A DNA stretch of 64,000 nt, from the NCBI GenBank assembly GCA_973895155.1, contig OZ316893.1:7402963-7466962 (forward strand), given 5' to 3'. This DNA comes from Marsupella aquatica (taxonomy: Eukaryota > Plantae > Marchantiophyta). Made by a program: the position numbers and the translations under genes. The notes under the pieces are model-generated. The model was given only the letters and a program-made list of their open reading frames with translations, searched no databases and was not told the origin of the DNA. Each line of letters starts with the position of its first letter. Positions within the stretch are counted from its first letter, which is position 1. Below are positions 25,561 to 59,100 of the stretch, piece by piece.

Positions 25561-26121
25561 AAATGAACATTATCTAGGCAGAAAATGGGGGCTTTTATAT
25601 CGGCAGGTGTAGTTTATGGGGAGTACACTTTTCACCACCAAACAAGAATGAACATCTTAGCAAGGCAGGGAATGAGGCTTTTATATGGGCACTGTGGCTG
25701 AATGAAAAGGGAATGAGTCTTTTACATGGGCAGGTGTGGTTTAATGAAAACACAGCCAGTTAAATGGGGACGCCTTCTTGCGAGAAGCCATATGGGTTAA
25801 CCTTCAATGAAAATACCAAAAATAAAAAGATTCACAAGGAGGGTTTACTGGGCTCCCATTGTGAACTTTCTCGTCAAAGGCCCATGATCCCACGGGACCA
25901 TTTGCAGGAAAGCATGTAATTGAAGACTCATAAATTATAGAGGATTGTAGCTCCTGTTGGTTGAGTTCTCTTTCCTGGGGAGAAGAAGTTTGGTTGAAAC
26001 CAATGACTGGCAAAATGGTACTGTGTTTGCTTCCGCAAGCTTCAGTAGACATTGGATTCCATACTTCGACAATCTCTGGAATCCAACTGGTGTCCGAGAA
26101 TTGCGAAGTTGGAGTTTTGAG

Positions 26122-32100: not shown

Positions 32101-32995
32101 AAAGAAAAGAACCAGAGCGGTAATGGCTGAAAATCCCGAAACGCTCGACAGAAGAGATGGCGTTCCTACCTGTCAATTACAGGTGATATCTTGACAGTGG
32201 TCCAGTAAGAGGCGTCGATAGTGAGATCGAAGCTGATATTGCCGAAGAGCTGCGAGAAATTGGAGTACAAGAAAGAAGCGCGCACGAGATACGTGGTGTC
32301 TGGCAGGACAGGCAGCTTGTAGCAGTTTTTCCTCCTCGAATCGTTGAAGTATCGAAAGTTCGTGCCGTCGTCCAACGGCCCCGAGTTGTATCCCGCCGGC
32401 GTGTACCCAGAGTCCGTCACCCAGTTGAACGTGCCGTCTTTAGAGTTCTGCTCACTACCGCAGAGGATATTAAGAAAACCTGTTCATCAGATTATAAAAG
32501 ACTAGTCAATTTTCACTAGCGTTTGGAACCAAGTCGTGCAGATCATTGTCATCAGCAAGCCATTTGAGCTCCACAGGATTGACCAGGGCTGCTTTGTAGT
32601 TTTGTAGCTAGCATGCATCTTCCTCAGAAACAACTTTATGTCTAGAAGACTAGTCCGTCTCCCTCTAGTTCTTTTCCTGGAAATCCTTAGTGAAATCCTA
32701 TGCCGTATGCGAGTCCTTAGCCTGCAGCAAGAGTGGCGTTCCATAAGATGTTGCTCCGCTCGAAGTGATCACTAAGCAGATCAGCGGATTTATAAAGAAT
32801 GTCTCGGTCGCCAATAACTTCACGGTTCCATATATGGAGGTAACCGAAATATTGTGAAGAATATGTTTACAAACCTGGCTGAGCAGAAGCTCCGGGAAAC
32901 CTGAGACTGAGTAGTAGTAGACACAACACAAATACTCCTATAGCCCGTACAAGCAAAACTACACCCAATCGGTGGATTGCATTTCGCAATTCCAT
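26122..32995 (-). CDS. Malectin-like domain LRR receptor-like Ser/Thr kinase (LRR-I type), multi-exon
   Basis: Exon 1 (32995-32875) encodes signal peptide [40 protein letters not shown]. Then [39 protein letters not shown] and short LRR exons. [23 protein letters not shown], kinase motifs [37 protein letters not shown] and KSDVYSFGV. Confidence 0.92.
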
Positions 32996-36110: not shown

Positions 36111-38604
36111 CGTCGTCTTTGGTCACATCAAGCCAGACCTTGGTTCATTCCTCTAACAATTCTTTTAAAACATGCGTCATCTTGTTACATCAAGCAGGAT
36201 CTTGGTTCATTCTCTATCTTGTCTTTTGATGAACATTCGTCGTCTTGGTCAATTCAATTGGTCGTTAATGTCTCTTGAATTTTTTTTTATTGCGATAACA
36301 TTCTGCAGTGTCAGATGGATCAGGTCCAGCAGTAGAGAAATGACTCACCCGGAATTCAATAATTGTAAACCCTAATTGGCACTGCCCTAGTTCATTTTAT
36401 GGCGTTGGATTTCAAGCGTTGGTCGTTTAGAACAGAGCTTTTTGAGTCACAGGAGGGATTAAGGAGACATTGCTCGGGATAACCTGCTTGTAGTGTCGCA
36501 CTCTACCTCAGCTTAGTGCAGGTCAACATGGCTGAGATCTCACACCAGAACTACGTTCTTCAGAAATCGAATCTATGTACTCTCTTTGCCTTGTGATCAC
36601 ATTGTAATATGCACAGAGAGGTTTGTTTGCTCACCACAATTAAGTTAGCTTTGTCCAGATACTCGATGGATATGCATGGCGATACAACGGACTTACTGCA
36701 AACATCAAAAGTTACCAGTCATTCTCGAAACCCAGACACAAACATCAGACAAAACGTTCAAAGCATCGATCCAAACAATTTTCAAATGGACCTAAACAAA
36801 ACTCAAAACAGTAATTACATCCATGATTATTTCTCCTTCAGAATGACTATTAACCTGAATCATGCAGCCCACAGAGCATCATGATACTTTACAGGCTTCT
36901 ATCTCTTATCCTGTCTCATGCCTTCCCGTCGGAATTTGTGTCAAAATACCGATCAAAATAGTCAATTCACTTTACACAACGTTAACGCACCTGAGTTACG
37001 ACAGTGAGCGTGCAATTGGAAACCTCTGCTTAATTTGAACTGAACTCCTTGTCATGACATTTCTTCCAGACTGTGTACAGCGCTAGTTCAATTCTATGTG
37101 TCCACTGATGGCTCCAGCAAACGCGGAAACGCCGGAGCTCTGTGCCACATCAGTAAAAATCGTTGAAATTCGAAGTCTGGAATTCGCGACGAATGCCTGT
37201 CCAAATCAATTCTGAAACGGAGCCTGGCCCTAACTGTTAGCGAACACAAACAGTACTCATCACTCATCTCAAGGTTTCAAATCTCAAATCTGACACAGTT
37301 CAGTTCAGTGACATTGGTGGAGTGTCTCTTTATGTATGCCTGAACCCCAAAATGTACCGGTAGGGTGTTCCCACTGATGATCTATCTTTGTGTTGTACTT
37401 TATGCCCATGTCGGTCTAGACAGTTCTAGTGCATCTCAGCTCCTTATCAATGAAATGCTCAAATTCATCATTTTCTCTGAGTCGGAAGTATTGATCAGAA
37501 GGTCATGAGTACTGTTCCTGCAAATTACAACCGAACTCTCTTAACAGAACAAAAGTTTGCCCTCTGTTTTCGCAATTTACAGTCTTTCAGTCTGGATATC
37601 TTTGCAGCGTGGAAATACCTGCAATTGATTCAAAATTCTTTCCCGGACTGATCAAAGTGTAAATCCACATGCCATATCCGTTTCATAAGAACTGTTAACC
37701 AACGTAATTGTGCATCGAGATTCACAGCAGCTTAGCTTTCAGACGAGGGATTCCATGGTCCTCCATTTCAGAATGTCCCCGTAGATTTCACATCTGCTTC
37801 AGAACGCGCTACTGGAACTTTCCATTCGTTATCGAAGAAAACCATGCTGCATTTTCCAGATCTAGTCTATGGGACTCCGATTCATATGTCAGGCTGATAG
37901 TCCTTCCTATACACTGCTTGGAGCAAATAAGGAAATGACTTGGAAGTGGTTAGAGAACTCTCGGGCAGTGAAATTCGAAGTATGAGAGGAAATTCAACTC
38001 AAATGAGAACTTCAGTGGAAGAGTGAATGCAAAGGCGATAGCTAGCTTGGAATTGCATTCACTCTGCTTAACGGGAGAATTCCGCATCATTCAGTTCATA
38101 AGGGTAGCAGGATGCACACTCCACCGCAAGCAGATAGATAATACGACTCAAATTTGAAGAACATTCTACAATTGCGGCCAAATCATTGCCGCGCTCACCA
38201 CGAATGCATTGCCTGATACTCAGTGTCACCACAGTGAATCTGAAGGTAAACCATGGTCTCGGCGTCAGTGTAGCGCAAAGCAGGCAGAGTTTCTTCAATC
38301 ATTTGAGGGCACAAGCAAAATATAGAATTGCGACTATGTACCCTAAACAAACTCAACAATCTGTGGATCGTAGTGGTTTCCAGCTTTTTAGAGACTGCCA
38401 ATTATGAGTACGGTACTCTGCTTAAAATGTTGAATTCTTGGGTTATGGAATGCAGGGTTGTCTACATTACGGCAGTGTAATAGTCCTCATCAAACGTGGC
38501 TGCTCTCTGTATACATATGATCAGCGGCCTTTCTAGTGTCTGCGCTGAAATGGAGAGATGAACTGAAATCGATGATAGTCAAAACCAATCTCGTCGAAGC
38601 CATC

Positions 38605-39879
38605 ATGCTCACGAGAGCAAGAAAAAGACCGGATCGCGAGCAGGGCTGGCTGCTGGTGAGATATTTGATCATTGGTTTTATCGGAGGGTTTGCGGTTTTT
38701 AATTTATTTTCACCACGTTCACCCCTCAATATTGATGATCATCCCACTGTTGTAGATGGTGAGATGGTCCAGTTGCCCAATTTCAGAGACGTATCGAACG
38801 AGACTATATTGAGTTACTCTCAGTTCAATCCTCGCCTTTGGACTAACCGAGACAGGATCCAATTCTTGCTGGAGGTGTTAAAATCAGGGAAAACCAGTCT
38901 CAAAGAAGCTATGAAATTGAGGGAAACTGCGATCAAAGCTACAATTCCCGTGTCTGGAGAGCAAACAAAGGTTAGCTGGATATCTCCATTCATGGAATTA
39001 AACGACAATTTCATACCTAGATTTGTCCAAATATCTCAGAATTGGCTAGGAGATGGGGATAGCTTGAATCCTGGAACGGTACAAGACCTGGTCCGAACGG
39101 TGAAGAGGCCCCTGGACCGAAATGCTGCGAATTGGTCAAATAAATACTCGACTACAACACAAGTTGATGAGGACAGTTTCAATTTTGGAGAAGAAGAGCG
39201 ATATCAGAGTTGTGCAGTAGTTGGCAATAGCAAAACACTTCTCCAACAAAGTTATGGAGGAATGATTGACAGTAACGACATGGTGATTCGTTTGAATAAC
39301 GCTGAAGTCTCAACGAACTCGACACACGTGGGAAACAGGACAACTCTTTCGTTCATGAACAGCGATGTCTTCCAACATTGTGTGGATAAGTGTGCTTGCC
39401 ATAAATATGGAGAACAAGTCCCAATCATCATATACTTGTCTCACGCGGAGCATTTGGTCCACATAGCCAGCGTCGGGGTTCGGTGTATACAGAAATCTTT
39501 GATAATTGTAACGCCTTCCCTCTTTGACGCCTTGTGTGCTGCAATTGTGAAGTGGTATTCCGTCACGAAATTCTTGCAGCAGACAACTTGGGGTCTGTCT
39601 GAATGGACTTTAGTGTATGACGATTACAATTTTCGCTACTCGTCAGGCATCCAAGCTGTTGTGCTTGCATTGGGCATATGTGAGCGTGTCAACCTGTTTG
39701 GCATTGGGGAAGCCACTTACACAGGAAAACGTGAACACCACACCGAAGATTGGAAAGAGATCTGGTTCCACGATTACGAGTCGGAATATCGGTTCTACGA
39801 AGACCTTGTTTCAAACATGAAAATTCCATTCCTTACTGATGCCGGCATTTCGTTTCCTAAAGTACGCATATTCCGCTGA
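38605..39879 (+). CDS. Glycosyltransferase family 29 (sialyltransferase-like, GALT29A-type) type II membrane protein; intronless
   Basis: ORF 38536-39879, ATG at 38572 or 38605. TM YLIIGFIGGFAVFNLF, sialylmotif L CAVVGNS..IDSNDMVIRLNNA..VGNRTT, motif S SSGIQAVVLALGICERVNLFG and motif VS HDYESE. Confidence 0.9.
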   Translation: MLTRARKRPDREQGWLLVRYLIIGFIGGFAVFNLFSPRSPLNIDDHPTVVDGEMVQLPNFRDVSNETILSYSQFNPRLWTNRDRIQFLLEVLKSGKTSLKEAMKLRETAIKATIPVSGEQTKVSWISPFMELNDNFIPRFVQISQNWLGDGDSLNPGTVQDLVRTVKRPLDRNAANWSNKYSTTTQVDEDSFNFGEEERYQSCAVVGNSKTLLQQSYGGMIDSNDMVIRLNNAEVSTNSTHVGNRTTLSFMNSDVFQHCVDKCACHKYGEQVPIIIYLSHAEHLVHIASVGVRCIQKSLIIVTPSLFDALCAAIVKWYSVTKFLQQTTWGLSEWTLVYDDYNFRYSSGIQAVVLALGICERVNLFGIGEATYTGKREHHTEDWKEIWFHDYESEYRFYEDLVSNMKIPFLTDAGISFPKVRIFR

Positions 39880-41425
39880 TCAGACGAGAACACGATGGTT
39901 CCAAATTTTGAAGCCTTTTGTCATTGATGGCAAACCATATTCTCACCTTGGTCGAATTTCTAATGTGGTCCAAAGTTGTTGCAACCCTTCCACCACCTCC
40001 CATCAAAGACTCACTGCGGTATCGTTCTCTCAATTTCAGTCGATGTTCCAACTGTTTGTCGACCTCTTAAATCAGAGAGTAAAAACCCGAAGCTGGTCGT
40101 TCAAATTTTGTATGAATGAATGGATGAACTCAAAGTTGACAAGATCCCTTTCATTACCTGAAATCTCTGGACGACCGAATAGAAATGTGAGAGCAACCCT
40201 ATTTAGAATATCCTCCAACCGATGAACAGATTCGTGAATGAATTGCACGTCGACGGGGATCCAACTGGGTCATGAAACCAACAATTTCCAAGGATTATCG
40301 AATGCCAGAAATTAAAGACTACGGTAGTATATCGTACTGGCCCAAACATATTGATCTCATTTTTCCTGTTCTATATATGATGGTTGAAATCTATTCTGGC
40401 AGATCTCCGATTTTTACCACGAGATCTTACAAGCGGCGGTATCGGCACAGGAACACATGCTTTTAAGTGCCAACCACGGGATGACATTGACTAGCAGTCT
40501 GCAATTGAGAGTTGATTGTTGACTACTAGTCAGACTAAAAAGGACCAGCTCCAGACAAGTCGGTGAGAATTTGAATCCTTATTTCCATCTTGGCCATTTG
40601 CATCATGTAAGCTCATTCGATGGGGGCTCTCTTGTTCCAGGCGTTCTCCATTTCCAACTCTTTTCATTTTTCTATGCGACTTGAGCTCTATGGCATCCCT
40701 CGAAAACGCTGAAGGTTCCTACACGTTCTCAGCAAACATTGATAAAAAGATTTCCCTCTGGTGAAGGCCATTCAATCCAGCGAACGGAGAACTCGATCCT
40801 TGCCTCTTGCTAGTGGAGAACTCGGCAATTGATGCCCGTGGCCCCACATCATTTCTTCCCTCAACCCACATGAGAATTGCGAGGAATCATGCACAAAAGT
40901 AGACACTAGAGCTTCTTTCTTAAAAAACTTCGTAGTATATACATGATGGCCAGGCTTAATGCGTCTTCAGGTCCTACCGTCACGATCATCACAACCTCTC
41001 ATGAAGCTAGAGGAGGTTCTAATTTGGTTCTCCTGGTTGATTGGAGATACTTGAGGTCCCACTCAAATAGTATGACGATCTGTATTCTCTTTGACCTGTT
41101 AATGATCCTGACTATTTTCTCATAGGCTCAGATCTCTGACAGTGATGAGAGCCTCAACGGGCTGAAGGCAGGATGAGAACTTTCAATCCTGCCTTCAGCC
41201 CGTTGATACACTACAGGGACTGCCCAGACCTGAAGAACGTGTGTAGGGTTGTCACAGCACTGCGTTCTGTTTGTCTCCTTCCATCCACATTCTCGGAGGT
41301 GAGAAGATTCTTCATTAGCTTCGCTTCTCTCCGGGTTGTAAGGGCTGGTGATTCGAGGATGATGGTTTATGTCGCCTAGTCAGTACTGCCCCAGTTTCAA
41401 AATTGGAGTGTTTCCCGCAAATCAG

Positions 41426-44400
41426 TCATACTGTATCGCTATCTTTCTGTCCAATCAGACTCAAAAAGCCCTGCAAGTCAAGCATCTCAACTCCTCGACG
41501 TGACGCCTCGGCTACTTTCAACGGACCTGGTCGATTTCCACACAACAGAAAGGACGTCCTCGACGTAACCTACACATCAAATCCAGATCATGTATATTGG
41601 TCAGTCCACCGAAGAGGGAAGCGAAATCACAAAGGTGGGTATGGAACCCTCAGCGTTTGCCAGAATATATACTGGAAGGTGCGGACGCAAGCAGATGTGC
41701 GCAGAGTCAATATTAGACTCTGGTGGGAAAGCGTATGATGGGGATAGAAGAGGTAATACCCCTCTATCTTTGACTTGTCCTCTAATAGCTAACCTCCTTA
41801 GTAGGAGGAGAACAATTCAAACTCAAGACAACATAGCTCGGGTATTGATTCTTACAGAAGTTCGAACAACTCCACCATGCAGGGTCACCAAATTTCTCAT
41901 GTCCTCACGCTTTATGGTTCCAAAGTCCCCTGTTATTACGATAGACTTTCCAGACAACAGAGGCGAGGTAGGCTGCAAGGTCACATCTTCAACGAGTTCA
42001 TCATTATTCAAGACACCAGGTGTTTCCCCTACGTCATCAGTTTCAATAACCTCATCCAACTCCTCCACAAGATCAGAATCTCCAGCAGACACAACCGTTC
42101 TGGTATCCTCGTTAAGATCCTCTTCCACGACATCAGGTTCCCCCACAGACTCGTTGGTCAAGCCAGGAGGTACGCCATTTATCAAGCCATCCTCCTTGCT
42201 GTCGGGCTTCGTATGTGTTTCAGTGACGTGGGTCCCAGTTACATTACACCCTGCCTGTTTGAGGCTGTGGACAAGCTCAATGTTGGGCTCAGCGTGGCAC
42301 CAGTCAAAAATGCATGATGCTGTTGCTGCCCCAATTCCTGGGTACATGAAAGAGATCTCAGTAAGATTCTCCCCTACAATATAATTCATCGTCAGTAACA
42401 AGAAAGCTCAAGGTAAAAGTCTGAGCGCAAATAGTATGTACCAGGAACATCCATAAAGCCAGACACGTCAGACTCCACAAGGCTTTCAAGGCTGCCAAAC
42501 TTCCTTGCGAGCTCTTTCGCAGTGTTTATGCCGACTTTTGGAATCCCCAAGGCTGCTATGAATAACCAGAGGTCCTGCTGCTTACTTTCCTGTCGAGTAC
42601 CAGACATTAAAAATAATTCTTTTATTTAATCTCTGAACACAAAAAGCCTGAATCATCATGAAGGGAAAGATGCTGCGACAAAACTTAGGATCAGAGAAAT
42701 ACTAAAGACAGCTCTGCAGCTTTCTTCGTATCCACGAGAATTCAATCCATGGCGTGTCAGTCAAGTGGGCGCCTGATGCGTTGAGATACCTCTATTGCTT
42801 TGAGTAGCCTTTTAATACTCTGCTTGCCAAATCCTTTCACTTTTGATAGGGCCTTTTCATCCAGATCATAAAAGTCTGCTGGATCCTTAACTAATTCCTC
42901 CTCAAGACGACTCAAAGTAGCCGAACCCAAGCCTGAAATGAGTGTCTTCGCAAAATGGCCAACCTGCGGCAATTATGCTTTGTTAGCGCCCTGAAAGCGT
43001 GGGGGCTAGAGGCCTTGTAACATTTCAACAAATCAAATGTCCACAATTTCCTTACTGACCAGATTGCATCCTTCTCCGACAAACATAGCTTTGCCGTCTA
43101 TGAAGGTAAAGTGAGATCAGATTGAAAAACAAGAAAGCTACTCTTACGAATCCTGCTGCTAATGATGCTCACGAGAAAAGCTGCTGAAATCCAAGAGAGA
43201 AGGGCCACAACCTCCATCTAAACATATATATTTATCAGGTGAGGTCTCCATAGCGAGCCATGGCTCGCATTTATGCCACTACTGCTGTCCCCAAAAACAT
43301 GTGCCAATTCGAGTTGTACCTACCTGGCGAGAGTGACGGCTTGGACAAGTAGAATTGGTGCAGAAGACCATAGGACTGGCAGAGGCCTCTGTCAGCGTGG
43401 ACCGACATGTTGGGCAGTTTTGGGGCGGCACCCATGGCGTCGCTGTTTCTGGTCTTAGATCTTCCAACACTTGAACTACCTGCTCATTATTACACATCAC
43501 AGTGCCAGCTCAGTCCTTCCAATTCCTACTCTATCCAATAATCAATCAATCAAGCACACACCCTTATTGACAAGATAAATCACGCCTTATGAAAATGATT
43601 AGTATCCACAGATCTGTCTGCGAGGGGCTGTCATTGCTTCAAGCAAGGCAACGCTACCTGTGGAATGACGTCCCCCGCCCGCTGAACAACAACGCGATCG
43701 CCTTCACATAACCCAAGCGCCTTGACATGCCTACACGACCACACATGGATAATTACACCTGACGTTTCTACGTACACTACAATCTTGAAATAAGTTACCT
43801 TATGGTGAAAGTGCACTTTGAGCCCCCAGGACCTACCTGGAAAAAGGGGTAGCAGTTCTTACGCAGGCGTTTAGAAATCAGATTCTTAGGAGCAAGGGCA
43901 TCTTGAAGATGCTTCAAAGGAAATCTCTAAAGACTGCAAATGTCAATTCGGATAGAATGCACAAGAGAAAATGATCCACACCCAAAATTGTGAAGAGAAG
44001 CTCGGCTTATTACAGCTCCTCCCAGCTCCACAGGCTGCATTGCATTTCAGTAAAGCCCAGAATTATAAGGCTCAAACCTAGCGCGAGAACCAGACAGTGC
44101 AAAAAAGCCACATTTCCACTGCGGAAAAACTGACTTGACCCTTCCAGTACTTGAGAGGATGGCGATGAGCGAGAACCTTCAATCGTGCATTGGGAATCAT
44201 GGCACCCGATCTGCCAATAGTGAGCTCAATTCGTTCCAAAACTGACACTGCCTCGGTGGACGCAAACTGACAAGAAAACAAAACTGGTCATGCCCTAGAA
44301 ATGTATCTGTAACTATTCATCAATAAAATCAAAAGACCCGACATCAACTGCATATCAAACCGGCAAATGAAACCGGTAGGAAGCGGAGAATCTTGGAGAA

Positions 44401-47400
44401 ATTGCATTCGAATTTCCTCGGATAGTACAAGAAAATGGGATAAAGATCATTGCGAAAAATTCTCTTTACATGGAAGTGGCAGAATGAAAGGGGTAAGAGT
44501 GCCTTGACATACTTTCCATGCAAGAGCCCACCGAGGATCAGTTCCCGTGCTTCCAAGTGAAGCCTGGATTCCCAGGTCATTCACTTTCAGCACCACCCCA
44601 TCAGCCTCATACTCCAAATTCTTCCGCATGCTCTTCCAACTAGAAAACAAGTATGCCCGCATTAACAGCTACAAGCAATCACTGAGACTCACTGACGTCA
44701 CTTATACCATGGGTCACTGCGTGAAAGATAACTACAATGCAAACCCTGCTTGTCGTAGTAGCGGGAATGCCATCATAATACCAAAATTATACAAATGACC
44801 AAAGCTTTCCAGAATATTACGTACAGGATTCCGCTGGCTACCACTCGCACTTACAAGTAATGACAGGAGCCATTATAAACCTTACCATTAATATTGTTAC
44901 ATAGGCCCCGCACTGGATGTGCAGGTCTTTGTAAGATGGATGTCTCACCTTTTTGCATACTCAAGAGCAGAGTCAATAGACTCAAACAAACGATTGTCTT
45001 CATTGACAGCAAATCCAGAAGACTTCAAGAGCTGCAACACCTCCCACTGATTCGCTGGTACCAGAGAAGACTTCTCCAAACCTTCTTCTGTGGGTTCTGC
45101 TCCAACTGTTAGAAAAGGAGAAAGTTGAACACCAGAAATTAGACATCAAACATGTTTCAGCAGGTACGCATGATTTCAGAATCGAGACGGCAGGGACAAA
45201 AGCACTAGGCTTGAGAAACTCAAACTGTTGGCATGGTGCCCAGCAATATAAGGAGTCAAATCTTGCTCTAGTTTCTCCACCTGACATTTCATATCTATCA
45301 TAGCTGCCCTCCCTATTACAACCAATAACGACCAACCTACCCTCGATAACTGCAATACTGTATGCCATGAAACGGAGAGGCCGAAGTTCATTAGAATTTA
45401 AAGATAACAAGCGCATGGAGCCAGCAGCGGCATTCCGTGGATTTGCGAACGGTTTTTCCCCTGCTTGAATCTGTGAACGACGAGAAAAATCACCAATTAC
45501 GCCTGAAAAATTTCTCGACATCTCCATTCATTGCTTATGGACAATAAAGAGCGATGTGAAACATCAAGAAGAACAAAAAACTGGAGAGACCACTCAACCA
45601 AGGTACAATCAGAAACGCGATGGCCATCATTTGGGCTCGAACATACTAAACATATTTTGGGCAATCTGTGTGTATATAGATATCGTCCGTGCTCCCGCTC
45701 AGTGTTTCCTTTTGTATTTTGGGCAGGTGGCACTTATGGCGAGTTGAGAAGCCTCCGCTTAGCTAACAATTTGTACTTGAGTTGTGCAGTCAAATTATGA
45801 TCGTTATACCTATGAACGGTCAGCCCTGGACCGTTGATTTTGGAGCATAAGTCACTAAAACTTTTCAAAAACCTCGTTTTATCATTCGTACGCCCCCTGG
45901 TAGCAAAAGTGCGAAAATTCGCCCCAAAAGGAAACAATGCTCCCAATGCACTGGAGAGAGTTTAAAGTAATGCTAAATACCTTCAAAGCATTTAGTTCTT
46001 TGAAATCTTCAAGAGACATAAAGATTTCTCCACGAACTTCCAATATTGTCAAGGGACTCCCTGTACCAGGTACCTGTTGTGGAATGGTCATGGGGATCCC
46101 CATGACTCTCTGGGCATTATGAGTCACATCTTCCCCTGCAAGGCATTTGAGTTGCAACTGCTTAAAACTTATAGCAAGTGACTATTCAAAATAGGCGACT
46201 CTCGAATTGGACTAAATAGTAAATGCCATCTGCAAACTTCAAACAGATTTTCCTCCGTCTCAACATTATATCTCCTCAAAACGATCTGAGGCAAGGGACA
46301 TACAATCACAAACATGTTTAGGAATGTTACATCCGCCCCATAGTTTACTAGACTCACCTCGATCAGTGTTTGTCCATTGATTTAGCATGTAGACAAACCT
46401 TCAGATCTTAACACATCCGAAGAATAGAGTGATTTAAGTAATTTGGGGTTATTATGTAAATCAATGAGGTGGATTTCAAGTTCCCCAAAATGGTTGCATT
46501 ATACTTAAGGTTTCAATAGACTTCCAGAGTAGGTAACTCGAATAATATTCTTGCATCGTAAAATTCTGGGACTCGAGTAAGCAAGAAACCAACCGTACCT
46601 AGAGTAAGAAAGAAATCAGCGAAAACACACAAAGGAAGTTACATTAAAACTGGCTTGGACGACGGTTCACAGCAAACACATATGAGTGTTTTAAACCCTC
46701 AACAATCAAAATGAGAGAAGTCCGAACATGGAAATAATGAAACTAACCCTGGATACCGTTGCCTCGAGTAGCAGCCCACTTTACGCTACAGTGTTCATAT
46801 CTTAAAGAGAGAGCAAGTCCATCAACTTTAGGCTCCACTACCAACCCCAAAGTGTTCTGATCCAACCCGAGCTTTTGTTGAAGCTTTCGATACCACAAGA
46901 GAACATCTTCTTCTGTAAAACCAACAATGTTCAAATTTGATTGGCTTGTTGTTCAATCAATATAGAGTGCGAAGGCCAACAATCTAGATACGAGAATGAT
47001 TTCACAAGGTCAACCCGCCTAGCAACTTATGGACTTGAGCTGCAATAGAACAAACTAACAGTGACATTATGGAATGCAAAGAAGATATGTCAGAAGCTTT
47101 GTTCACTAAAAATCAATTGGATCAAGCAAAGAACATAGAGGTAGGCAAGGCTTTTTTCAGCCCAACAACAGTCAATAAGAAGAAAGGACTTTGCAGAAGC
47201 TTCTCGGACTTAAAAGAACGAACAAATAGCCACCACAGCAGCGTTGCCCAAGAGTGCCGGTATAGGATACAATGTACCTTTCTGCACAGAAGCGAGACTG
47301 AGCATGGGCACAGAATGAATTACTTTCAGCGTATCAGAAGATGGTGGAGCAGCTATCTGGATCCAGAGTGCAATTGAGTCAAGCATTGAGTCAGGCAGAA

Positions 47401-49922
47401 ATGTACATGCAAAGTAATGAATCCTGTTTTACTAATTGTTGAGCGAAAACTTTTCAGGACAGTCTGGAAAGATCTCAGCAGCTTGCACTGAGCTTGCACC
47501 AGACCAACGCTTACAATATATTGAACTTGGAACTGAACAAACTCTGAAAGACCCAAAGTTTGAGCAAACCAAAGACCCTCAACACTAATCTTACCAAACC
47601 ATCAAGACTTGATTCTGAGTTGGAGACTTGAGCTTCAAGGTGAACCAGCTCTTTCACCAAAGAATCATATGCAGCATCACTGTGTGAATGACAAAATAAA
47701 GTGGGTTAGCAGAGGGTATCTAATGGTTTGATGCACCTATTTCCACTAGGTACGATATTTCGACATCGAGATTTCGTTAGTGTTGCAGAACTTTGGCATT
47801 GTGTGGAACTTAAACAATACCTTACGAGTGGGCTATCCAGAGCGTGGTATAGATATGCATGATGGCCGATCGAATTTCGCAATCTGCCGATTTCGTGCTG
47901 TAGAGCATGATCATCCATTCCTACAGTGTTGCTGTCGGTAGAAGCAGAATCAGAAGCCATTATAGCATCATCTGTGTCCTGTTGTTCTCTGAATGGCTCT
48001 CCAAATTCCTCTTGGACTTTTTTCACTTCTTCCGTAGTACCTGCTTCTCCTGCTAATGTTATTTGACCTCTAAATGAAGATGAATCTACAGCCTCTCCAC
48101 CTTCAACAGAAACAGTCGTTGATGGATCGTGATCAAGAAGGCGATCAACAGGAGTCACTACTTCAAAATCTTCACTTGCATTTCCTGCGTCATCACCCTT
48201 TCCAACAAGGGAATCACTTTCCTCTTCGACTACTGCTACTGAAAGTGCCTGTCCATCTTCGGTGCTATCAAGAGCAGCTGGTTCCAAACCAACCAACGAC
48301 GAATACCCTGCAGTATTTCTATTCCAAAGTTCGCCTATGTCCACTTCTTCTACTTCTACCGGTGCAATGTCACTTCCTTGAAGTGTGATGCCAACCTCGC
48401 CATTTTCGGGATGCTCCATCTCCCGATTAGCAGTAATTTCTTCTGCCATGGACTCTTCAATCCTGTCGTCCGCCCCGATTTTCACATCAGCTTGAAGAGC
48501 TTCTCCTACTGACACTTCTATTTCTGCCGCAGATGCACTTTCACTCATTTGAACAGTGCTACCCATGTTCCCACTTTCGGTGTATTCCAGCTGCCCATTG
48601 GCAGTGGTTGCTTCTCTCATCGCCTCTTCATTCGTCTCGGCTGTCCGGATCTCACCATCAGCTTCACTAAAGGCAGATTTGGGGTAAGTTGAACTACACA
48701 ATTGTGTGATATCTCCGTTAGTACCCAAATCGGTCACGCCGCTTCGGGAAACCCCCGACCAAACCTCAGTTTCTTGAACTTCAGTACCGGATACTTCTTG
48801 TTGAGCCGTGCTGACCACAGTCACATTCTCTGTATGCTTCAGTGATCCATTTGCAATAGTTGCTTGTTCTGTCAATACGGCCTCTTCAATCTTATCGTAT
48901 GCCCCGATTTCAACTTCAGGAGCTTCACGGAGAGGAGTCGATTCAGGAACATCAAAAAAACGAAATTGCGAGGACGTATGCACATCAGTACCCAAGCTGC
49001 TGACCAGACCACTTCGGGGGTCTGCTTTCGATTCTTGATCCCCAGGTGAAATCTCATTTTCCTCTATTTGTAAAGAGGATTGAGCTGGAACCGCGCTCAT
49101 GACATTACTGGTCTCAGGACTTTGTGGCTCAAGACTTGGAGAAATTGCAGCCGGCGTTGTCTTTTCAATCCTCTCAGCTTCACTGACGGCAGATTCAGGC
49201 AAAATTGAACCAGTCACCTGCTGCAAGATGTCTCCGTCAGTTCCTTCTGAGCTAATCATGCTGCTCCTCTGGGAGGTTGCTTCCAATTTCTCCACAGAAG
49301 AAATTTCAGCCTCCCACAATGCGGTGCGCCATTCGAATTCATTGCCCTGCTCCTGCTCAGAGAGCACATCCACCAGCTCCAGGGCTCCATTTTCCTCCCT
49401 GAAGACATTTTCAGCGCTTGTCAAAACTTTATCCTCGGCAGCTGTACTGAAGTCAGTTGATCCGCTGTCACCTCCTCCTCCTCCTCCTTGTTGAAACAAA
49501 TTGTTAACCTTCTCATTGAACTTACGGAGAACATCGACAACAGACTCCAGCAACTGTTGCGGCGAGAAATCACCGGAGTTCCCTACTCTAACACTAGTCA
49601 TTCGCTGCTGCCGTGACCTCCGGGTCACCAGCTTCCGGCTCTCCCTGACAACAGGTCGTACACGAGGAACGCTGCTGGAGCTAATTCTCACAGTGGAACC
49701 GCCAATGCCAACATTGTGCCTAGCAGGAAGAGAACACAAACCCCTGGCGCTACTCCCAATCAGAGACCTTACAGACGAATCCATTGTTTGAAGGGTAAAG
49801 TTCCGGCTAAACCCTAAGCTCCTCCAGCCATAGGGCGACTCCGCAGAATTAGCTGGTTGAAGCCCGGCCAAGAAAAACTGATTCAATTTCAAGGCAGTGT
49901 GTCTGCTGACCACTCTCTGCAT
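41426..49922 (-). CDS. ligA: Bacterial-type NAD+-dependent DNA ligase (LigA) with long N-terminal extension, 16 exons, ~1439 aa
   Basis: Domain Ia [25 protein letters not shown], motif [66 protein letters not shown], Zn finger CPTC..CTNSTC, HhH ISGLG/GFG/LGIPKVG/PGIG and [12 protein letters not shown]. Exons 49922-47821, 47679-47595, 47356-47278, 46912-46748, 46135-45981, 45470-45341, 45105-44949, 44639-44513, 44266-44177, 44034-43982, 43730-43658, 43479-43324, 42963-42790, 42589-42442, 42337-41856, 41569-41426 sum to 4320 nt in one frame. Confidence 0.93.
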
Positions 49923-51644
49923 ATTCCCTTCCTCCCACCTCCCAGCACCGGGGAGCCCTTTGCAAAGCCAGAGCTGCGAGCTTGTTGGTGAACAGAGCTT
50001 AAACCCTGGATAGACGAACTTTTCAGAAAAGCATTATGCCCCTGGTTCTGCAAGGCACAAGACGATGATGACACTCCAGACTCGTGGTAGTACCTACTCC
50101 CCAATGCCGTCAAGCAGCTACGGACGCGCATTCTCTTTTCAGAGGTGGTTCGATTTCATAGCTCAAACCTCAAAAAGAAGAATAGTAAACGCTTGATCGA
50201 AAGCCAGAATGAGTCACTTCAAACGATACATGAAGGCCAGAAAAACATGAATTCGAAATAGATTCGAAGCAACTAAATCGATACCCAGCAACCTACGTAC
50301 CATCTTGACTCAAAAGACGAATGTCCGAGACGCTCGCCTAGTAAGTTCTACAGTGCCAGCTTCGTTCCTTCCTCGCGCGCTCTCTCGCTCGCCTTTCTTA
50401 AACCCTACGAACACCTCTGAACCCTACGAACTACAGTTTTGCCAGAAATGTGCGCGAAATGAATGCACAGTCGTTCCTCTAAGTGCACACTCTCAAGGAC
50501 GGTACTTGCACTTACATGTGGTTTGCATTGTTTGATAAGTGCACTTTGTCTCGCTTTGCACTTGTTGACAGGAAGAAGCCCGGGGTTGCACTTTAATGTG
50601 TTTTGCACTACATGACAAGTGTACAAGTTCCTCTGACTTGGCATTCATCGACTAGTGTTCAAGGTTCAGACCCCAAAAAGAGTGACTCCAGATAATAAAT
50701 AATACATATAGCTACATATATATCATAGTGCCCAACGGTAGAAAATGCCTAATGGGGAGACATGATCCCAAAGGGGAAGTAACCCAATGAAGGGGAGGAA
50801 AAGAGGGGAAAGTAGGCGTATAGTTACAAAGGCAAAAGATATTCCTTATGGCCCTATTACATTTGGTATGCAGAATTAATCCATGGACCCCCTTGTTATT
50901 GCATAGTTAGGGTGGTTTAATTCATGAGCTTTGTTTGTAATCGGTGGGTATGGCTTCCCGATCACAAAGGGTCCAGCTTTCTCATCAACCTTTGAGACTT
51001 GCTGCTCTTGCAATTTATGACAGCAACTGTGGAAAGCCAGGAATGAACATGTGCGTCATCCCCATATTTCTCAATTTCACGCAATTGATGGTTGTTCTCT
51101 CCCTCAAGCCTTAAAATGAATAAGTGTCTGCACTCGATCAATTGGACTAGACCACAAATTCCCACGCCCAACCCGGCACTAACTCTCCCTGCAGCTTGTA
51201 GCATTCTTGAAATGCCAGGTCAATGCACCACCTCCCTACAGCATCCAACTTGATCCCTGGCAATCTCACTTGTGCTGACATCCTAGTGCCTTGCCATGTT
51301 TTTCACTTGCAGTGGACAGCAACCATCGTTCTCACTTACTCTGGACAAGAGCTATATTTTGGCTTATGGTGGCAGGAAAAGACTTTCCATCAAGAGCACT
51401 TAGTATCAAAAAGTGTAAAGCACAGGCATGGGCTAGCATTTGGCCAGTAAAGAGGCATTCATATGACGTCTCAATGCTTCAAAGCTGTGGATGATAAAAT
51501 TTGACCATAAACAATTAACTTTTTCCAGGGCTATGTAAAAGGTTCTTAATTTTCTTCACAAGCCTCGACTGTGACTTATGGTCATATGCAAACGATCGTA
51601 AGTCAGCAAATTTGATGGTCAGTTAACTTTTTCTGTCCATAACT

Positions 51645-52056: not shown

Positions 52057-53190
52057 TCAACCACTTCCAAGTCTAGGGGATCCGAGAAACATGACAGTCT
52101 CGTCCAACCAGTCGAAGATCGCTTCATTCACCGAGCTCGAGAACGAATGCAGCGCCCAGGCCGCCATGATCTCCTGCCTCACGTGCTCCCCAAAGCAAAG
52201 ATCGCCATCGCTCCAACCTCCTCGACACACGGGCAGAACCTTGTGCTTCCAGAGCACGGCCTTCCAATCAAATTGGTATGGGCTCTTTATCACGTAGTCG
52301 TCCTCATCGAGCCAGCCCTCAGACTTGTAGGCCCAGTGAATCCGCTCTGAGGTCGCTCGCTCGAGGCACGGGATCTTCTCCGAGAAGGAGTGGGGGTGGA
52401 TTGGTCGAGGCCAGACATCAATCTCGTTCACGAGCACGCCCCTTGATCTCAAAATGCCCATGGCATTGACCACTTTCGGGTAAAATCCATGAGGTCCGCT
52501 GTCGAGAGGCATGGGAACGAAAAGCGTGGGAGGGAACGAATTAGCGTTGGCGTTGTTCAGAACTGCGAACTCTCCGGGAGAGCACATTACGATCATGGAC
52601 TGGATGGCGAGGTCTAGAGTCAGGAGAGTGGTGAAATTTCCGCCGCTGGAGTATCCGAACGCGACGAGAGGCAATTGCTCAAGCGCGTGCTCTTTAGTCC
52701 ATTCGCGAATTACGCTGACGACGATCGTCCTGTCGAGGGACGGCGGAGGTGGCCAACTGAGGACATTGTAGGGGAGCCAGTAGGCATCCACGCTCTTGAC
52801 CATGATGACTGCGTAGCTCCTGTTCAAGGCTTCCAAGACTGCGGCTCGGTCCTCTGGAAATCCGTAGCACTGGAGGCAGTTTGGGCCCGGGTCGAAGAAG
52901 CTCAGCGGCTCTTTGTCTTTGCCGTGCGCCAGAAAGAGGACTGCCTTCGGCATCGGGGGAATTTGCCACACCACGTCCTGCCCATGCCTAATTTCATAGA
53001 AGGGATTCATGGCAGGGTCGCTTCTTGAGCACTGCCCGGGAAAAGTTGGGAAAGAGATGTACTTTTCTTCTGCTGCTGCTGGGTCTACGTGCCACAAGTT
53101 ATTCGCTGCTGCAGCTTCGTTGATGAGGAGGAACACAATTATATGATGTAGGGCTAATGCAAGAAGACCGTAGCAGCGTACCAATCTCAT
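52057..53190 (-). CDS. Secreted/membrane-anchored alpha/beta-hydrolase fold protein; intronless
   Basis: ORF 52057-53202, ATG at 53190. Hydrophobic N-terminus, KAVLFLAHG oxyanion region, nucleophile elbow GYSSGG, PPTLFV.M..D and a C-terminal His (ALHSF). Confidence 0.85.
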   Translation of the reverse strand: MRLVRCYGLLALALHHIIVFLLINEAAAANNLWHVDPAAAEEKYISFPTFPGQCSRSDPAMNPFYEIRHGQDVVWQIPPMPKAVLFLAHGKDKEPLSFFDPGPNCLQCYGFPEDRAAVLEALNRSYAVIMVKSVDAYWLPYNVLSWPPPPSLDRTIVVSVIREWTKEHALEQLPLVAFGYSSGGNFTTLLTLDLAIQSMIVMCSPGEFAVLNNANANSFPPTLFVPMPLDSGPHGFYPKVVNAMGILRSRGVLVNEIDVWPRPIHPHSFSEKIPCLERATSERIHWAYKSEGWLDEDDYVIKSPYQFDWKAVLWKHKVLPVCRGGWSDGDLCFGEHVRQEIMAAWALHSFSSSVNEAIFDWLDETVMFLGSPRLGSG

Positions 53191-56115
53191 CTCGACGACC
53201 ACCGCCGTCGGCGGACTCCTACTAACGAGTCAATTGCAATGCGATGCAATTCAGTTCTATAGGATAGACAAAGGGCTCCTCTGCACCGACGATGGCTGTG
53301 AATGAAAACTCTCACATTCAACCGCGGCTGGCAATGCTCTGTCTCTCAGACATGGTGAACTTGTGGACTCATCCAGCTGGTCGACTCAATCAAAGGCAAC
53401 AAGTTCAGCTCAATGAGGCAAGATGCTCCGCTTGCGAACAGGTCTCAATAATATCAGAGTACCGAGAAGTAAAAGTGAAACTCAACACTTATGTATGGAA
53501 TTCACGGAATTTGTTGAGTGCAAACAGAGTGAAACTCAACAAGCTGTAACACATCATGCTTTGCAAGTCGGTCCCCTGAGACGTGAAGCTCGTGAAACAC
53601 TGGGATTACTCCATGCAAGGTTGCTGTTTCCGTGTGCTCAATCTTCACTGTCTGTACTTCCTCCAACACCATCAGTACTCATCTATATACCAGTGATGCC
53701 CTTTTCCCATGCAATCCGTGCTTGCTGTACTCGAAAGCCATCTGTTACGGTACGTGACGGCTTCGTTTACGTAAACTGAACACTCCTCCGAAGTACTCCC
53801 GACGACTCACTCCGCAATTAAGTTACCAGTCCAGCTCCCATGCAAACCTCGCGCATTTGTTTGCTTTCACAGCTGCGAGCTTGCTTTCGACAGTTTCTTG
53901 ACGGACAGAATCCGCGGATATATCATCAATTTTCTGAAAAGCACTGCTGAGTTTTCAAATTTGCACGTGGCTTGCTCAAAAGATTTCCTTACAAGGTTCT
54001 TCACACATTCCGGAGTCACACATTCCGGAGTCCATTGTTATGCCAGAATATTTCATTTGTCTTGTGCTAAAATTTTAGATTAGTGCTCGATGACTAGCAC
54101 CAAGAATGGCTAGAATTTCATATTAGTGTTACAGGTGGAACCACTTTGAGCTCTCGACATTTCGGCGCCTGATGTGATCACTTGCTCCATGATTTGCTAA
54201 CAGAAACAACTGTATTAAAGACTATTTTGCAAAGTTGGAATTCAGTATGACTACGATTAATCAGATTGGCGCAGCACCGAAGATTCTTAGTTAGTGTCAG
54301 CAGTTACAACAATAATCAATTAATCCGATCGGCGCAGCACAGATGATTCTTAGTTAACAGAAGTCACACCTGGCAGGTGACTTCTTGGTTTAACCCGACA
54401 CCAGAGAAAGACTCGTCCATCTCCGGGTTCTGGGCCCACGGCGAAGGGTCTCCGGATCAGGGGACAAAGCTCAGGAAGAGATCCATACGGTTGGACGTCG
54501 GATTGCATGATTGCAGTGGGATGTGGACACAGATCATGCAATGTCACAATCGGAGTAGTCTAGTGTCCAACGTGGAACATGACAGAAAGTCTGGATACTT
54601 CTCGCCGACTCGGCGCCTCAAAGCATGCCAGATAATCTAGGATCGCCGAAGTTTACATTGATGCAAAGCTGATGGAGATAGTACCGTACCTGTCATCATT
54701 CTTCGGGCCAAATGTAATCTCCGTTCCCTTCGATGGCTGCTTTTTGCTGTGAGTGGTATCACCTGATTGCGGACAATGCTGAGGTGGTGATTTCAAAACG
54801 CTATAGCTGTCATGAACTTTCGGCCCAAATGTAATCTCTTTTTCCTCCAATATCACATTTTGCTTTGTTTCTGCCGTTTGGGCACATGATGGTTCATTAT
54901 GTGCTAGTCTTTCCTTGCAGTCATTGACACAGGAGCAATTTACTCTCTCTTCGTTGATCCTGTGGGATTCTACTACACTTGCCCAACGACAATCAAAGTC
55001 TTCGGTTCTCTGGGTCGTCGTTTTGGCATGTTCTTGATCGATTCATTCCACTTTAGACTAATGGACTTCCGGAAAGCTACAGTACTGGATGCAAAAATGG
55101 ACCTCCATCAACGCCTAGCTAGCGTTCATTCTAGTCTGTGCTCTCCCCTTAGTGAACCGAGACTTGCGCCTCGTTGAGTTGGAAAATTGGAAAGAAGGTT
55201 CTGAAAGCAAAATATCAACGCAACCCCAAGGTACGAAGCTAGGCTACAAAATCGTTTCAGGTACCATTGGAGATCGGGATCGAGCTCGAAATAATTACAA
55301 TCTGTTCAGTGGCTAGGTCAATAGGTGGCCTGTCTAGCTTACAGACACCCTAGCCGGTAATCCGACGGTCCATGAATCTGACGAAGGGGCATTATCCCCT
55401 CCCGAGAATTAACAATACAACCTACGTTTGCGTCCTGCAGCAGGGAGGGCATTCTCTCATGAATTTTGACGATACAACGTTCCGTTCTGTAGGAGGATCG
55501 ACCACAACAAGTTAGTACAGTGACCAAATCAGGACATCATTCGTACCATTGTCTGTCTTTAGACGAAGTGCAGATTTTGAGGTCACTGCTTGGCGTCACC
55601 TTGTTCAGTCACCTAGTACAGTGAGAAAAGCAGGACATCATTCCTGCCGTCTGCCTCGGAAGGAACCCAGCGCCCGCGTCTCTGCTGTACAGTCAATTCT
55701 GCCACTGATTTCCGACTAGGATCGTAAGAAACCAGATTGCGCCATTAAAATCTGAGCAGAGGTAACAGATCACCTGACAAGCGTCCCATTGAAAGCAAAG
55801 AGCACCTGAATAAAACAAGTCAAACATGATCCGTACTGTAGAATGAAAAGGCTTGGATAGAAAAACTCCAGTACCAACTAAACAACGATTGGGCAACATC
55901 GAACTGTCGCCACCAAGAGACTAGGGGCTACCCAATTCGGGCTGTTGATAATACAGTACAAATAGTTGTGACACGTTGTCAATGCCCGGTATCAGTGTAC
56001 AAGTGTGGTATCTCCAATGATATGAAAGAACCAGTCGCCCTACTATTGTAAAATATACACCTCGATTGCCGTACTAACGTTTTAGTCTACCTGTGTTTTG
56101 TCCACCAAAGTGCAT

Positions 56116-59100
56116 TTACAAGTCCAATTTTATCCTGTCTGACCACCTAAATATGTCCGAGTAAGTACGATCCCCCCCGAGCTCCTCACCAGTGGCACCA
56201 GCGGCAACCCTCAGCACCTCTTCGATCAGTGCGAAATTTCCCATAATATCAACGTGTGACCCACTCTGTGTGCCTCGCCCCTCTAGGAGATTAGCTGGGG
56301 GTGCATGGTCATATTCCCTCAAGTACACAGGCGATCCAGACGGGTTGAACTTGGTTTTTCCCCGCCATCCCTTTGCACACATGAAACCTGCACTTAGGCC
56401 GGTAACCGTTTCATCTCCATCAACGAAATGAACCCCACCTTTCAGGCACCCTTCAGACTCTCCCTCAACACTGGTATCAATTCGGAAAGGGATATAGCAG
56501 GAATCACCACTAGGTGAGGTCTTGTATATGTATGACCTTTCCGTCAACAATCCCACGCCGTACATGCAGTACATCTCCATCTCTGGGGCATTTGGAAGTC
56601 TGATGAGACGATGAAAGAAGCAAAAGTTCATTAGGCAAGTAGTAAGCTAGACGTCGATCCATTCGTAGGAAAATAAATACTACGAACACAGACAAGAACT
56701 GTATAAACCAAATCAGCGCAATATACTGCCTTCGTCAATTGCAGCCAGTAATTTGACAGTTGCCCTAACGAAAGTTTGCAACATGGATTCTAGTGAATGA
56801 GAAAGCCGAAGTATAATGATCAGCATAGCAGCATCACAACTACATTCAGAAAAGCACAGTATCGATCCTAACGAACTGTGCTTGGAATGTCACTTACGAA
56901 GATTCCAAAGGATTGGCCCAATACTTATAATGATCGTATTTTGGGTCACTGAGATCCTCAGCAATGCCATATCCCCAATTATCATCTGCACGTTTCATCA
57001 TTTTTGGAGCAACTTTCCTAAGAAGATCCAACGCTGTCTCTGCGGTATAAACTTTGTGTTGCCCAACTTCCTCTATATCCGCCCAGTCCATTTCCTGGTA
57101 CTCGGTCCAAACGTCTCCACAAGATACATTACTGCGGACTGGTTCACGTGGAGATTGAGTCTGACAAAGAATACAAAACATGAGTTGACGCCACATCCAC
57201 AGATGACCAAAAATTCCTTAATCCCATCCTGCCATGCGGCCACAAGGACAACGGATGAAACGCAAAAGAACCAGTCCCCTTAAATATAAACTTCTAGCAT
57301 ACGAAAACCCGACACTAAAAACTGACTCAGGAATCGTGATATTCATGACAATCCTAAAATCCTGTTGTTATAGTGAGAGACGAAATCACCGATTCCAAAG
57401 AACAGATAGTTTCAGGGAGAATCGAGAGACTTAGTGTACAAAACAATTAATGGCAATCTACTTTACTGAATGCTCTTGCCCCTCTGAAACAATATATCGC
57501 AACTCATGCTCTATTGCGTTTCAAGGCATGTGGACTCACCTTGGACGCCAGTATTTGTGCCTTGATTTCTGAATAGGGAAGTTGCGCAGCATCTTTCCCA
57601 AACGAAACCAGCCTTCCATAGTGGGCATATGGTTTTCCGTGTGGACCTAATTTGTTGTCTGTTGTGTTTTCCAAATCTACTGGCTTTTTATCCTTAGCGC
57701 AATCAAAACCTTCCTCGGGTGACCAGTCTGCATTTCCCCAAATGGTTTCTCCTCCCTTCGGTAACATGGACATGGTAGCATCCCAGGTTCGACACACTCT
57801 CATTATGTGTTGCAGAGTTTGTAAACCAAAAAATTCTGAATCGAGCAAACCTGGTGCAGCAGCCCTGCACAAGCAATTTGTTTGGACAATTACAAAAAGA
57901 GGGGCCCACAATGTATGAAAGCCTTAAGGAAATGATAAATGCTCGTCTAATTTCCGAGATACAGCAGTTGTGCAGAGTCATCGTCCTTGTGCAAGAAGCA
58001 TTAGGTATGCCTTTGTGAACATCCATTGATTGCATTTCTAACCAAATACCTTACCGATATTCTATTGCCAACTTCCAGCCCCTTCCTTGAACTAAGCCAA
58101 TATTTCTCTGAGGCCCTTCTCGAAGACTCGGCTTTGACCCTTTGTAACTTGAGTTCTTGAAGAATATAAGTTAATTCAAACATTCCTTTTTCCGTTCCAT
58201 TCGTTTCAGAGTCAAATCTTCGATACCCCTCAGTCATCAAATTAGGGGTCTTCAGATTGACACTTTCCAGCGCTTTACTTCGTTTTTCAAACGAGAGAGT
58301 GCCTTTAAATAACGAAAACTTAGAGAATGGAAAAACGGTACACCTCCAAACTGCTCACCTTGCAACGGCAATATCCTTAGCTTCTGCAGAGAAGAGCCCT
58401 GTAAATGCTTTTGAAACGCCGAGCATCGGCCCCGCTAAGTTCATCACCGCTTTCACATGTCGGGCACACCAGTCAGGACCACCACCTCCCCCCATCGGTT
58501 TTGGAGCTTCGACCCATTTCATAAAGTGTAACCAATAAAGTGCCCCCATGGAGTGAGGCACTGCTACAACCTTGTTTCCATTATTAGTTACAACCAACAT
58601 CTCGATTGTATATTTCAGCCTGGTCAAAGATTTGTCCCGAACCTGTTGACGAAACGAATTGTTAGACTGCATCCTCTTTGAATCTCTTCGCCTGTACAAT
58701 CACCTTAGATATTCATGACTACCTGCCTGAGCGATACTTGTCTGCAGGCCTCTGGGTGTCTCGGTACCTTTCGTTTACTTTTACCCACTGAGCTATAAGA
58801 CCGGGGCAGTCTGGATTCGATTTCTCTGATGATATTCCGCTGTCCACGCCCACCAAAGCATGACAGTTGTGCTAAGCTGAGCTCAAACTACGAAGGGTCG
58901 TTCAAGAAAGGTAAAAGATCAAATTGTACCTCACTGTTTTGGAAGGAGATCCTCCAGTCATAGGAAGCCATGTACATATTCCGCTCTTCATAGCCAATAC
59001 GAGCCAGATTCTCAATCAAAACTGCCCAGACAAAATAACCAGGAGCAAAGTAGTCAGCAGCAACAAGGCCTGATGTTGCGCGAACTCGAATTCCTGGCAA

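Follow-up and report, generated by a model that had tools for sequence, protein, structure and literature searches.

Eukaryotes are described as using ATP-dependent DNA ligases (PMC4166229, PMC6843274), and for Arabidopsis the available portions of the reviews list enzymes of the LIG1, LIG4 and LIG6 type only (PMC4166229, PMC6963530). A catalogue of organellar replication enzymes in moss, Klebsormidium and green algae gives LIG1 as the sole ligase, which reaches mitochondria through alternative start codons (PMC4166229). NAD+-dependent ligases of the bacterial type (LigA) are sporadic outside bacteria (PMC4797296, PMC2806865), and such cases, among them haloarchaeal LigN and the enzymes of giant viruses, Dictyostelium and Ostreococcus, are as a rule explained by gene transfer (PMC2806865, PMC4797296). 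In Paulinella, a host-encoded LigA is imported into the chromatophore and serves the genome of this organelle (PMC12176269). Here, we analyzed a stretch of 64,000 nucleotides (nt) from the liverwort Marsupella aquatica (contig OZ316893.1, forward-strand positions 7,402,963 to 7,466,962; "the window" in the following), which carries a LigA gene on its minus strand (41426..49922). Judged from its sequence, the encoded protein belongs to a single clade of green LigA proteins and is probably an NAD+-using enzyme that closes nicks in organelle DNA; it is predicted to enter mitochondria and possibly plastids as well.

Gene model and catalytic residues

Translation of the minus strand places the ATG of the gene at 49922 and the end of its stop codon at 41426, i.e. 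at the same ends as in the original prediction. Sixteen exons splice into 4320 nt encoding 1439 amino acids (aa) with a single terminal stop, and all 15 introns (104–612 nt) have GT-AG borders. The model is collinear over its full length with an independent model from Calypogeia fissa (62% identity, 1545 columns). Pfam searches with 14 individual pieces, comprising all exons except exons 2 and 10, assigned the adenylation domain to exons 4–8, the OB fold to exons 9 and 11, the C4 zinc finger to exon 12, HhH motifs to exons 13–14 and the BRCT domain to exon 15, which is the overall domain order of LigA. Exons 3 and 16 gave no Pfam match and exon 1 yielded noise only (E 0.068). A 17-exon alternative, in which exon 9 was extended and a further exon of 38 nt was included, was dropped, as it put the OB fold out of frame. 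The splice model and the Pfam matches bear out the earlier claim that all LigA modules follow each other in order across 16 GT-AG exons lacking an internal stop. The locus is an intact nuclear LigA gene of a liverwort, with predicted splicing. Four sequencing runs compared with the locus include its introns and contain no splice joints, which argues neither for nor against expression.

For assessment of the catalytic residues, the protein was aligned with 497 bacterial LigA cores, in which 80 columns are at least 95% conserved (numbering according to an enterobacterial locus, L010). The window protein matches 74 of these 80 columns. The residues kept include the equivalents of Y22, D32, D36, E113, K115, D117, R136, E173, R200, D285, K290, K314 and the four zinc-binding cysteines, and in addition those of H23, Y35, R208, R308, R333, R379 and D382. 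Exon 1 (47821..49922) encodes a predicted presequence, an acidic spacer and the first half of domain Ia, whose signature (YLYH..SPLVSDAAYD) straddles the exon 1/2 junction. Together with exon 2 (47595..47679; Asp702, Tyr705, Asp706) it provides Y692, H693, D702, Y705 and D706, which align with Y22, H23, D32, Y35 and D36, residues that we take to be essential for use of NAD+. Exon 3 (47278..47356) encodes His743 and the PMLSL motif. The adenylation domain (PF01653 in exons 4–8) begins with motif I, EPKVDG, in exon 4 (46748..46912), which also encodes TRG; the catalytic Lys784 (codon 46829-46827) corresponds to K115. Motif III, EVRGE (E847), is located in exon 5 (45981..46135) and NPRNAAAG in exon 6 (45341..45470). 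Exon 7 (44949..45105) has an alternative in-frame acceptor 9 nt downstream, and the C. fissa models show both forms. Exon 8 (44513..44639) carries motif IV, DGVVLK, and the motif V lysine, completing the set with D971, K976 and K1000. The OB fold starts in exon 9 (44177..44266) and continues through exon 10 (43982..44034; SLHN) and exon 11 (43658..43730; RAGDVIP). It is followed by the Cys4 zinc finger in exon 12 (43324..43479; C1094, C1097, C1112, C1117) and by HhH motifs in exons 13 (42790..42963) and 14 (42442..42589). Exon 15 (41856..42337) encodes the last HhH motif, an acidic insertion of 88 aa and the start of the BRCT domain, which ends together with the reading frame in exon 16 (41426..41569), as placed by the splice model and the alignment with C. 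fissa.

Whole-protein family scoring was carried out with the C. fissa and Marchantia orthologues in place of the spliced window protein. Both pass the NCBIfam cut-offs for LigA (660 versus 369 bits; 626 and 623 versus 444), and neither reaches the cut-off of the LigB model. In the Nlig-Ia profile, C. fissa scores 27.8 bits (cut-off 27) and Marchantia stays below with 23.6 bits. Their best PDB match by sequence is E. coli LigA, and the closest folds are bacterial LigA structures, with ATP-dependent ligases being distant (E 1e-5 or weaker). An AlphaFold model of the Marchantia orthologue, built on a shallow alignment of 7 sequences, has a mean predicted local distance difference test score (pLDDT) of 50 and is confirmatory only. 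Thus, every sequence test assigns the window gene to the LigA family, and the green-plant enzyme likely uses NAD+.

The gene shares its domain order with bacterial LigA (E. coli; PDB 2owo, 5tt5; TIGR00575, PRK07956), but in contrast to the bacterial genes it resides in the nucleus, is interrupted by 15 spliceosomal introns and encodes a 670-aa N-terminal extension, composed of the predicted presequence and the acidic spacer, as well as the 88-aa insertion ahead of BRCT. Moreover, the green clade has largely lost the linker motif DSPTQR as well as Asn84 and SRxA. With the plant ligases LIG1, LIG4 and LIG6 it has the nick-sealing role in common, whereas cofactor class and domain set differ; the suggestion that it falls outside the flowering-plant ligase set agrees with the available review text cited above.

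Green-plant relatives and the predicted presequence

Word-index searches returned orthologues from Calypogeia, Marchantia (2 species), Riccia (2), Physcomitrium, Sphagnum and Chara, several of which are automatically named "DNA ligase (NAD+)" in public databases. An exhaustive HMMER search (best 150 of 34104 matches) added five proteins to the plant clade, among them those of Chlamydomonas sp. UWO 241 and of the EukProt record Mesen1, which we take to be Mesotaenium; the other three are treated as green algae according to their position in the tree. In the top Atlas cluster, Chlorophyta is the commonest phylum. The annotated proteins of Marchantia (MARPO_0107s0037), Physcomitrium, Riccia, Chara (CBR_g23346) and C. 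fissa (CAM6087570.1) are orthologous and form one clade with the window protein, which is 52–53% identical to Marchantia LigA over the ligase part and has a spacer about twice as long. The public model of Chara braunii P0033 lacks the motif IV and V lysines and has a partly duplicated domain Ia, probably owing to a splicing error in the annotation.

Among the top 120 matches of the word-index searches there was no LigA from a vascular plant, and likewise none from hornworts or Klebsormidium was seen in these incomplete searches. As one of the word-index searches failed to recover 5 of the 7 rows used as its query and the HMMER listing hides relatives inside 50% clusters, the absence from vascular plants counts as weak to moderate evidence; LigA was likely lost there. 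A plant LigA is not mentioned in the available portions of PMC4166229, PMC6843274, PMC3914683, PMC6963530, PMC6981420 and PMC8383295, the accessible part of a list of genes acquired by moss through horizontal gene transfer (HGT) contains no DNA ligase (PMC3493653), and a text search of the accessible part of PMC4758235 found no mention of DNA ligase. No description of a plant LigA family was found in the literature searched, although subscription journals and large HGT supplements, which were beyond reach, may list it. The suggested novelty is therefore to be narrowed: orthologues from liverworts, mosses, Chara, Mesotaenium and Chlamydomonas are already public, but appear uncharacterized. Apparently, green LigA is a presequence-bearing, intron-rich and vertically inherited family that is automatically annotated but undescribed.

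The original prediction had likened the first ~110 residues, said to be rich in Arg and Ser and poor in acidic residues, to an organellar transit peptide. Indeed, residues 1–110 (49593..49922) contain 18 Arg+Lys and only 3 Asp+Glu. The call of a presequence is based on composition only and is the weakest step of the analysis. The basic, acid-poor character is conserved: in 11 of 14 green proteins the first 80 aa carry a net charge of +6 to +11 (C. fissa counted from Met69), and the three exceptions (+2, +2, +3) may be truncated records. A start of the form M-Q/H-R-x-x-x-R is common to the window protein, C. fissa (Met69), Marchantia, Riccia and Sphagnum. Among these, Calypogeia, Marchantia, Riccia and Sphagnum have Arg3 and Arg7 in common, even though the remaining extension barely aligns, and Physcomitrium has a multi-Arg start at Met12. 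An Atlas search with aa 1–140 gave no usable match. Several arginines at the N-terminus mark a presequence as mitochondrial and inhibit import into chloroplasts (PMC7031408), which favors mitochondrial import. The start resembles a mitochondrial more than a plastid presequence, with dual targeting being possible. A later Met followed by Ser-rich sequence leaves room for a plastid isoform, comparable to the twin start codons of Cyanidioschyzon LIG1 (PMC4166229). On balance, we lean towards mitochondria being among the destinations and rate the chances of plastids as even.

Domain Ia places nicotinamide mononucleotide (NMN) between two tyrosines (PMC7470946). In the proposed organellar role, the presequence would be removed on import and domain Ia, through the five residues named above, would bind the nicotinamide of NAD+. 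Lys784 would become adenylated with release of NMN, and AMP would be handed to the 5'-phosphate of the nick, while the OB, zinc-finger and HhH domains would hold the duplex in place during sealing. In this manner, the enzyme could close nicks that remain after synthesis by the organellar polymerase, both at Okazaki fragments and at repair sites, alongside or instead of LIG1. Mechanism as well as a role in replication or repair are inferred from homology.

Could the protein be a dedicated plastid ligase, identical in enzyme and origin, but imported into plastids only? Residues 47–110 are rich in Ser and Arg, a Met is present near position 47 in the window protein (Met47, in frame), Marchantia and Riccia, and Ser-rich starts follow a later Met in Sphagnum and Chara. 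Furthermore, the plastid ligase is stated to be unidentified (PMC4166229, PMC6843274, PMC3914683, in the portions available), Arabidopsis mitochondria already receive LIG1 (PMC4166229), and Paulinella brings a nucleus-encoded LigA into a photosynthetic organelle (PMC12176269). However, the conserved first start is Arg-rich, a feature inhibitory to chloroplast import in Arabidopsis tests (PMC7031408), Met47 is missing in C. fissa, and the gene is not cyanobacterial. Paulinella, compared here by its published description, is an independent lineage with a young organelle. We consider exclusive import into plastids unlikely. LigA cannot be the plastid ligase of Arabidopsis in any case, because ATP-dependent ligases alone are listed there in the available text (PMC4166229, PMC6963530).

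The preferred reading, import into mitochondria and possibly plastids, can be extended to a wider scenario, which we consider rather unlikely and put forward tentatively. Ancestral green organelles might have ligated their DNA with NAD+, using a horizontally acquired LigA that was dual-targeted via alternative starts, was essential in algae and bryophytes and represented the plastid ligase there; vascular plants would have lost LigA and switched to ATP-dependent ligases. Mitochondrial genomes of vascular plants are more rearranged, and a replisome swap at the base of the tracheophytes, if true, may have contributed to this. A conserved, presequence-bearing LigA from algae to bryophytes would be an overlooked addition to the organellar replication catalogue. 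If organellar, it would make the upkeep of organelle DNA dependent on the NAD+ pool, and it would mark an enzyme replacement in vascular plants. These ideas are testable in Marchantia, Physcomitrium or a Chlamydomonas. The significance is limited in that the enzyme class is classical and the genes are already annotated automatically.

Phylogeny and origin

From at least 600 matches in GTDB, 80 named loci were taken as the bacterial sample; the phylum to which a Rivularia genome belongs contributed another 30 plus 16 loci, and that of an Anaerolineae genome another 30. Careful IQ-TREE analysis was performed with the ~540-residue cores of 36 hand-picked rows, including 7 green ones, while 92 rows were used in a quick tree only. 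The near bacterial rows had been picked by similarity to the plant protein, and the label "oxygenic" of the cyanobacterial rows is partly inferred from their grouping with Rivularia. In the careful tree the 7 green rows form one clade with support of 100/100, and branching within the green clade follows the species tree (algae, Chara, Mesotaenium, moss, liverworts). Elsewhere in this tree, the oxygenic cyanobacteria are joined with Bacillota (98/93), and the Alphaproteobacteria pair with a gammaproteobacterium (96/99). Placement of the green clade with oxygenic cyanobacteria, as expected for endosymbiotic transfer from the plastid, was rejected by the approximately unbiased (AU) test (p-AU 0.0013, 8 cyanobacterial rows). 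Chloroflexota are nearest by score and in quick trees, albeit without firm bootstrap support. None of 80 viral LigA loci (out of 139 in IMG/VR, giant viruses not being specifically sampled) fell inside the green clade.

We conclude from the trees that there was one old acquisition, which did not come from the plastid ancestor; a single transfer from a non-cyanobacterial bacterium probably preceded the divergence of green algae and land plants. In contrast to the sporadic LigA genes of other non-bacterial lineages, the green clade is of old age and has been handed down vertically in algae and bryophytes. Ostreococcus LigA, included in a tree of 2009 (PMC2806865), retains the bacterial SLGN motif, which is changed in all 12 green-clade rows covering this position, suggesting an acquisition separate from that of the green clade.

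Alternatively, the gene could be an endosymbiotic relic, i.e. the LigA of the mitochondrial ancestor that moved to the nucleus and was retained in greens. Grouping of the green clade with Alphaproteobacteria survives under LG+G4 (p-AU 0.070), the start of the protein is of the mitochondrial type, and LigA is also present in Dictyostelium and Ostreococcus (PMC2806865). However, the grouping is absent from the best trees and rejected by a mixture model (p-AU 0.019, quick tree), the Alphaproteobacteria pair with a gammaproteobacterium instead, the named bacteria heading the homologue lists are Chloroflexota, and the Ostreococcus gene appears to be a separate acquisition. An alphaproteobacterial origin is doubtful, and the relic as a whole improbable. 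Of the original proposal of an endosymbiotic or horizontally acquired, domesticated ligase, the domesticated bacterial-type enzyme stands, whereas the endosymbiotic part is disfavored: the cyanobacterial version is rejected and the alphaproteobacterial version borderline.

As a side observation, the LigA sequences of two loci from genomes titled Acidimicrobiia (L060) and Flavobacterium (L075) nest in Alpha- and Gammaproteobacteria, reflecting either bin contamination or transfer.

Acidic spacer, second copy and genomic setting

Between presequence and ligase lies an acidic, low-complexity spacer that the original prediction did not mention (aa 140–670, 531 aa; 47913..49505), comprising 111 Asp+Glu and 27 Lys+Arg. 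It is predicted to be disordered from its composition, and the equivalent region of the Marchantia model has a pLDDT below 50; the spacer is likely a disordered tether that expanded in this lineage. BLAST comparison of the spacer with itself reported no internal repeat. Two conserved islands are shared with Marchantia and Riccia, a helix at aa 124–139 (49506-49553) and a Trp-containing motif at aa 195–209 (49296-49340). Their surroundings are unalignable, and they are possible partner-binding motifs.

Upstream, an out-of-frame ORF of 80 aa overlaps the start of the LigA gene (49889..50131, minus strand). It is 68% similar to the N-terminal extension that both C. fissa models read in frame, and it could regulate translation or flag a mis-started C. 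fissa annotation. The longer C. fissa start being out of frame in the window supports 49922 as the LigA start.

These features bear on the idea that the protein is a nuclear or cytosolic repair ligase, whose basic N-terminus does not function in import. The very long acidic spacer (~530 aa) would fit such a role, the Arg-rich residues 86–107 could be a nuclear signal, and the C. fissa and Physcomitrium models start further upstream, with a Met that would leave the presequence masked. Nevertheless, the basic, acid-poor N-terminus is conserved from chlorophytes to liverworts, the extension seen in C. fissa lies out of frame in the window, and LIG1 exists in moss and green algae (PMC4166229), making this role quite improbable.

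In runs X3/X4, the region 41300-50100 is represented by two versions of about equal depth, one being near-identical to the window. The other version differs by ~3% in introns, a pattern like that of an allopolyploid. Two LigA copies, 97% identical in the core, are likewise present in C. fissa. Between 43950 and 45520, 7 of the 40 listed substitutions (45 in total) of the second copy are exonic, versus 35% expected (p 0.011), and 4 of these 7 are synonymous. All 11 indels in this interval are intronic (p 0.008), and the splice dinucleotides are untouched. For the gene as a whole, 12 of 14 indels are listed; 11 of them are intronic, and the twelfth is an in-frame 9-nt deletion in exon 1. Here, 40 of 197 substitutions are listed, of which 21 are exonic (5 synonymous, 16 non-synonymous); 8 of the 16 non-synonymous variants restore the C. 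fissa residue, and most affect variable positions. Relative-rate tests against C. fissa were not significant (chi-square 1.14 and 0.27).

Several observations weigh against an intact organellar enzyme of single, non-plastid origin. First, the green clade lacks residues conserved in at least 80% of bacteria (D56, P58, Q60, F70, N84, Q209 and S445-R446-A448), and in most green rows the DSPTQR linker, F70, N84, T151, Q209 and SRxA are altered or deleted. Second, the window and Marchantia proteins have just two Arg in their first 12 residues, and the Ser-rich stretches after a later in-frame Met could be plastid signals. Third, the outcome of the alphaproteobacterial AU test depends on the model, and the sister group shifts, without support, once phage ligases are added. 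Finally, the 5:16 ratio of the partial list of exonic variants is neutral (24% synonymous expected), the window protein departs at 9 of the 236 positions where nine other bryophyte sequences agree without exception, one of these changes being Gly to Cys797, and an out-of-frame ATG precedes the start.

The last three points would suit a real family whose window copy is decaying or dispensable, but the 4320 nt contain no stop, frameshift or broken splice site, every catalytic residue is retained, indels and substitutions avoid exons, and the rate tests are not significant, so we regard decay as very improbable. The window gene appears intact, perhaps with mildly relaxed constraint.

The neighborhood of the LigA gene consists of plant genes, with 8 of 12 neighboring ORF pieces having a Pfam match. 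Pfam identified a dynamin-family gene (21693-24085), a malectin-like receptor kinase (26000-32500), a GT29 sialyltransferase-like ORF (38521-39879) and an LCAT/PDAT-type acyltransferase (56116-60737). Moreover, a single contig of run X1 spans the LigA gene plus ~15 kb of flanking DNA. Bacterial contamination is ruled out by the 15 GT-AG introns, the plant neighbors, this contig reaching into the flank and the orthologues in other plant genomes, as the original prediction had argued from the surroundings.

Intron 5 of the LigA gene contains a short dispersed repeat (45700-45760), where many contigs match ~50 bases and then diverge from the window. Directly upstream of the gene, an intronless, GC-rich ORF of 390 codons (52057-53229, minus strand) has a signal-peptide-like start and no Pfam match at 1e-3. 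Another intronless, GC-rich ORF (7773-8792, plus strand; 339 codons) encodes an enoyl-CoA hydratase domain (ECH_1, E 1e-20) behind a signal-peptide-like start; its possibly secreted product could be a microbial acquisition.

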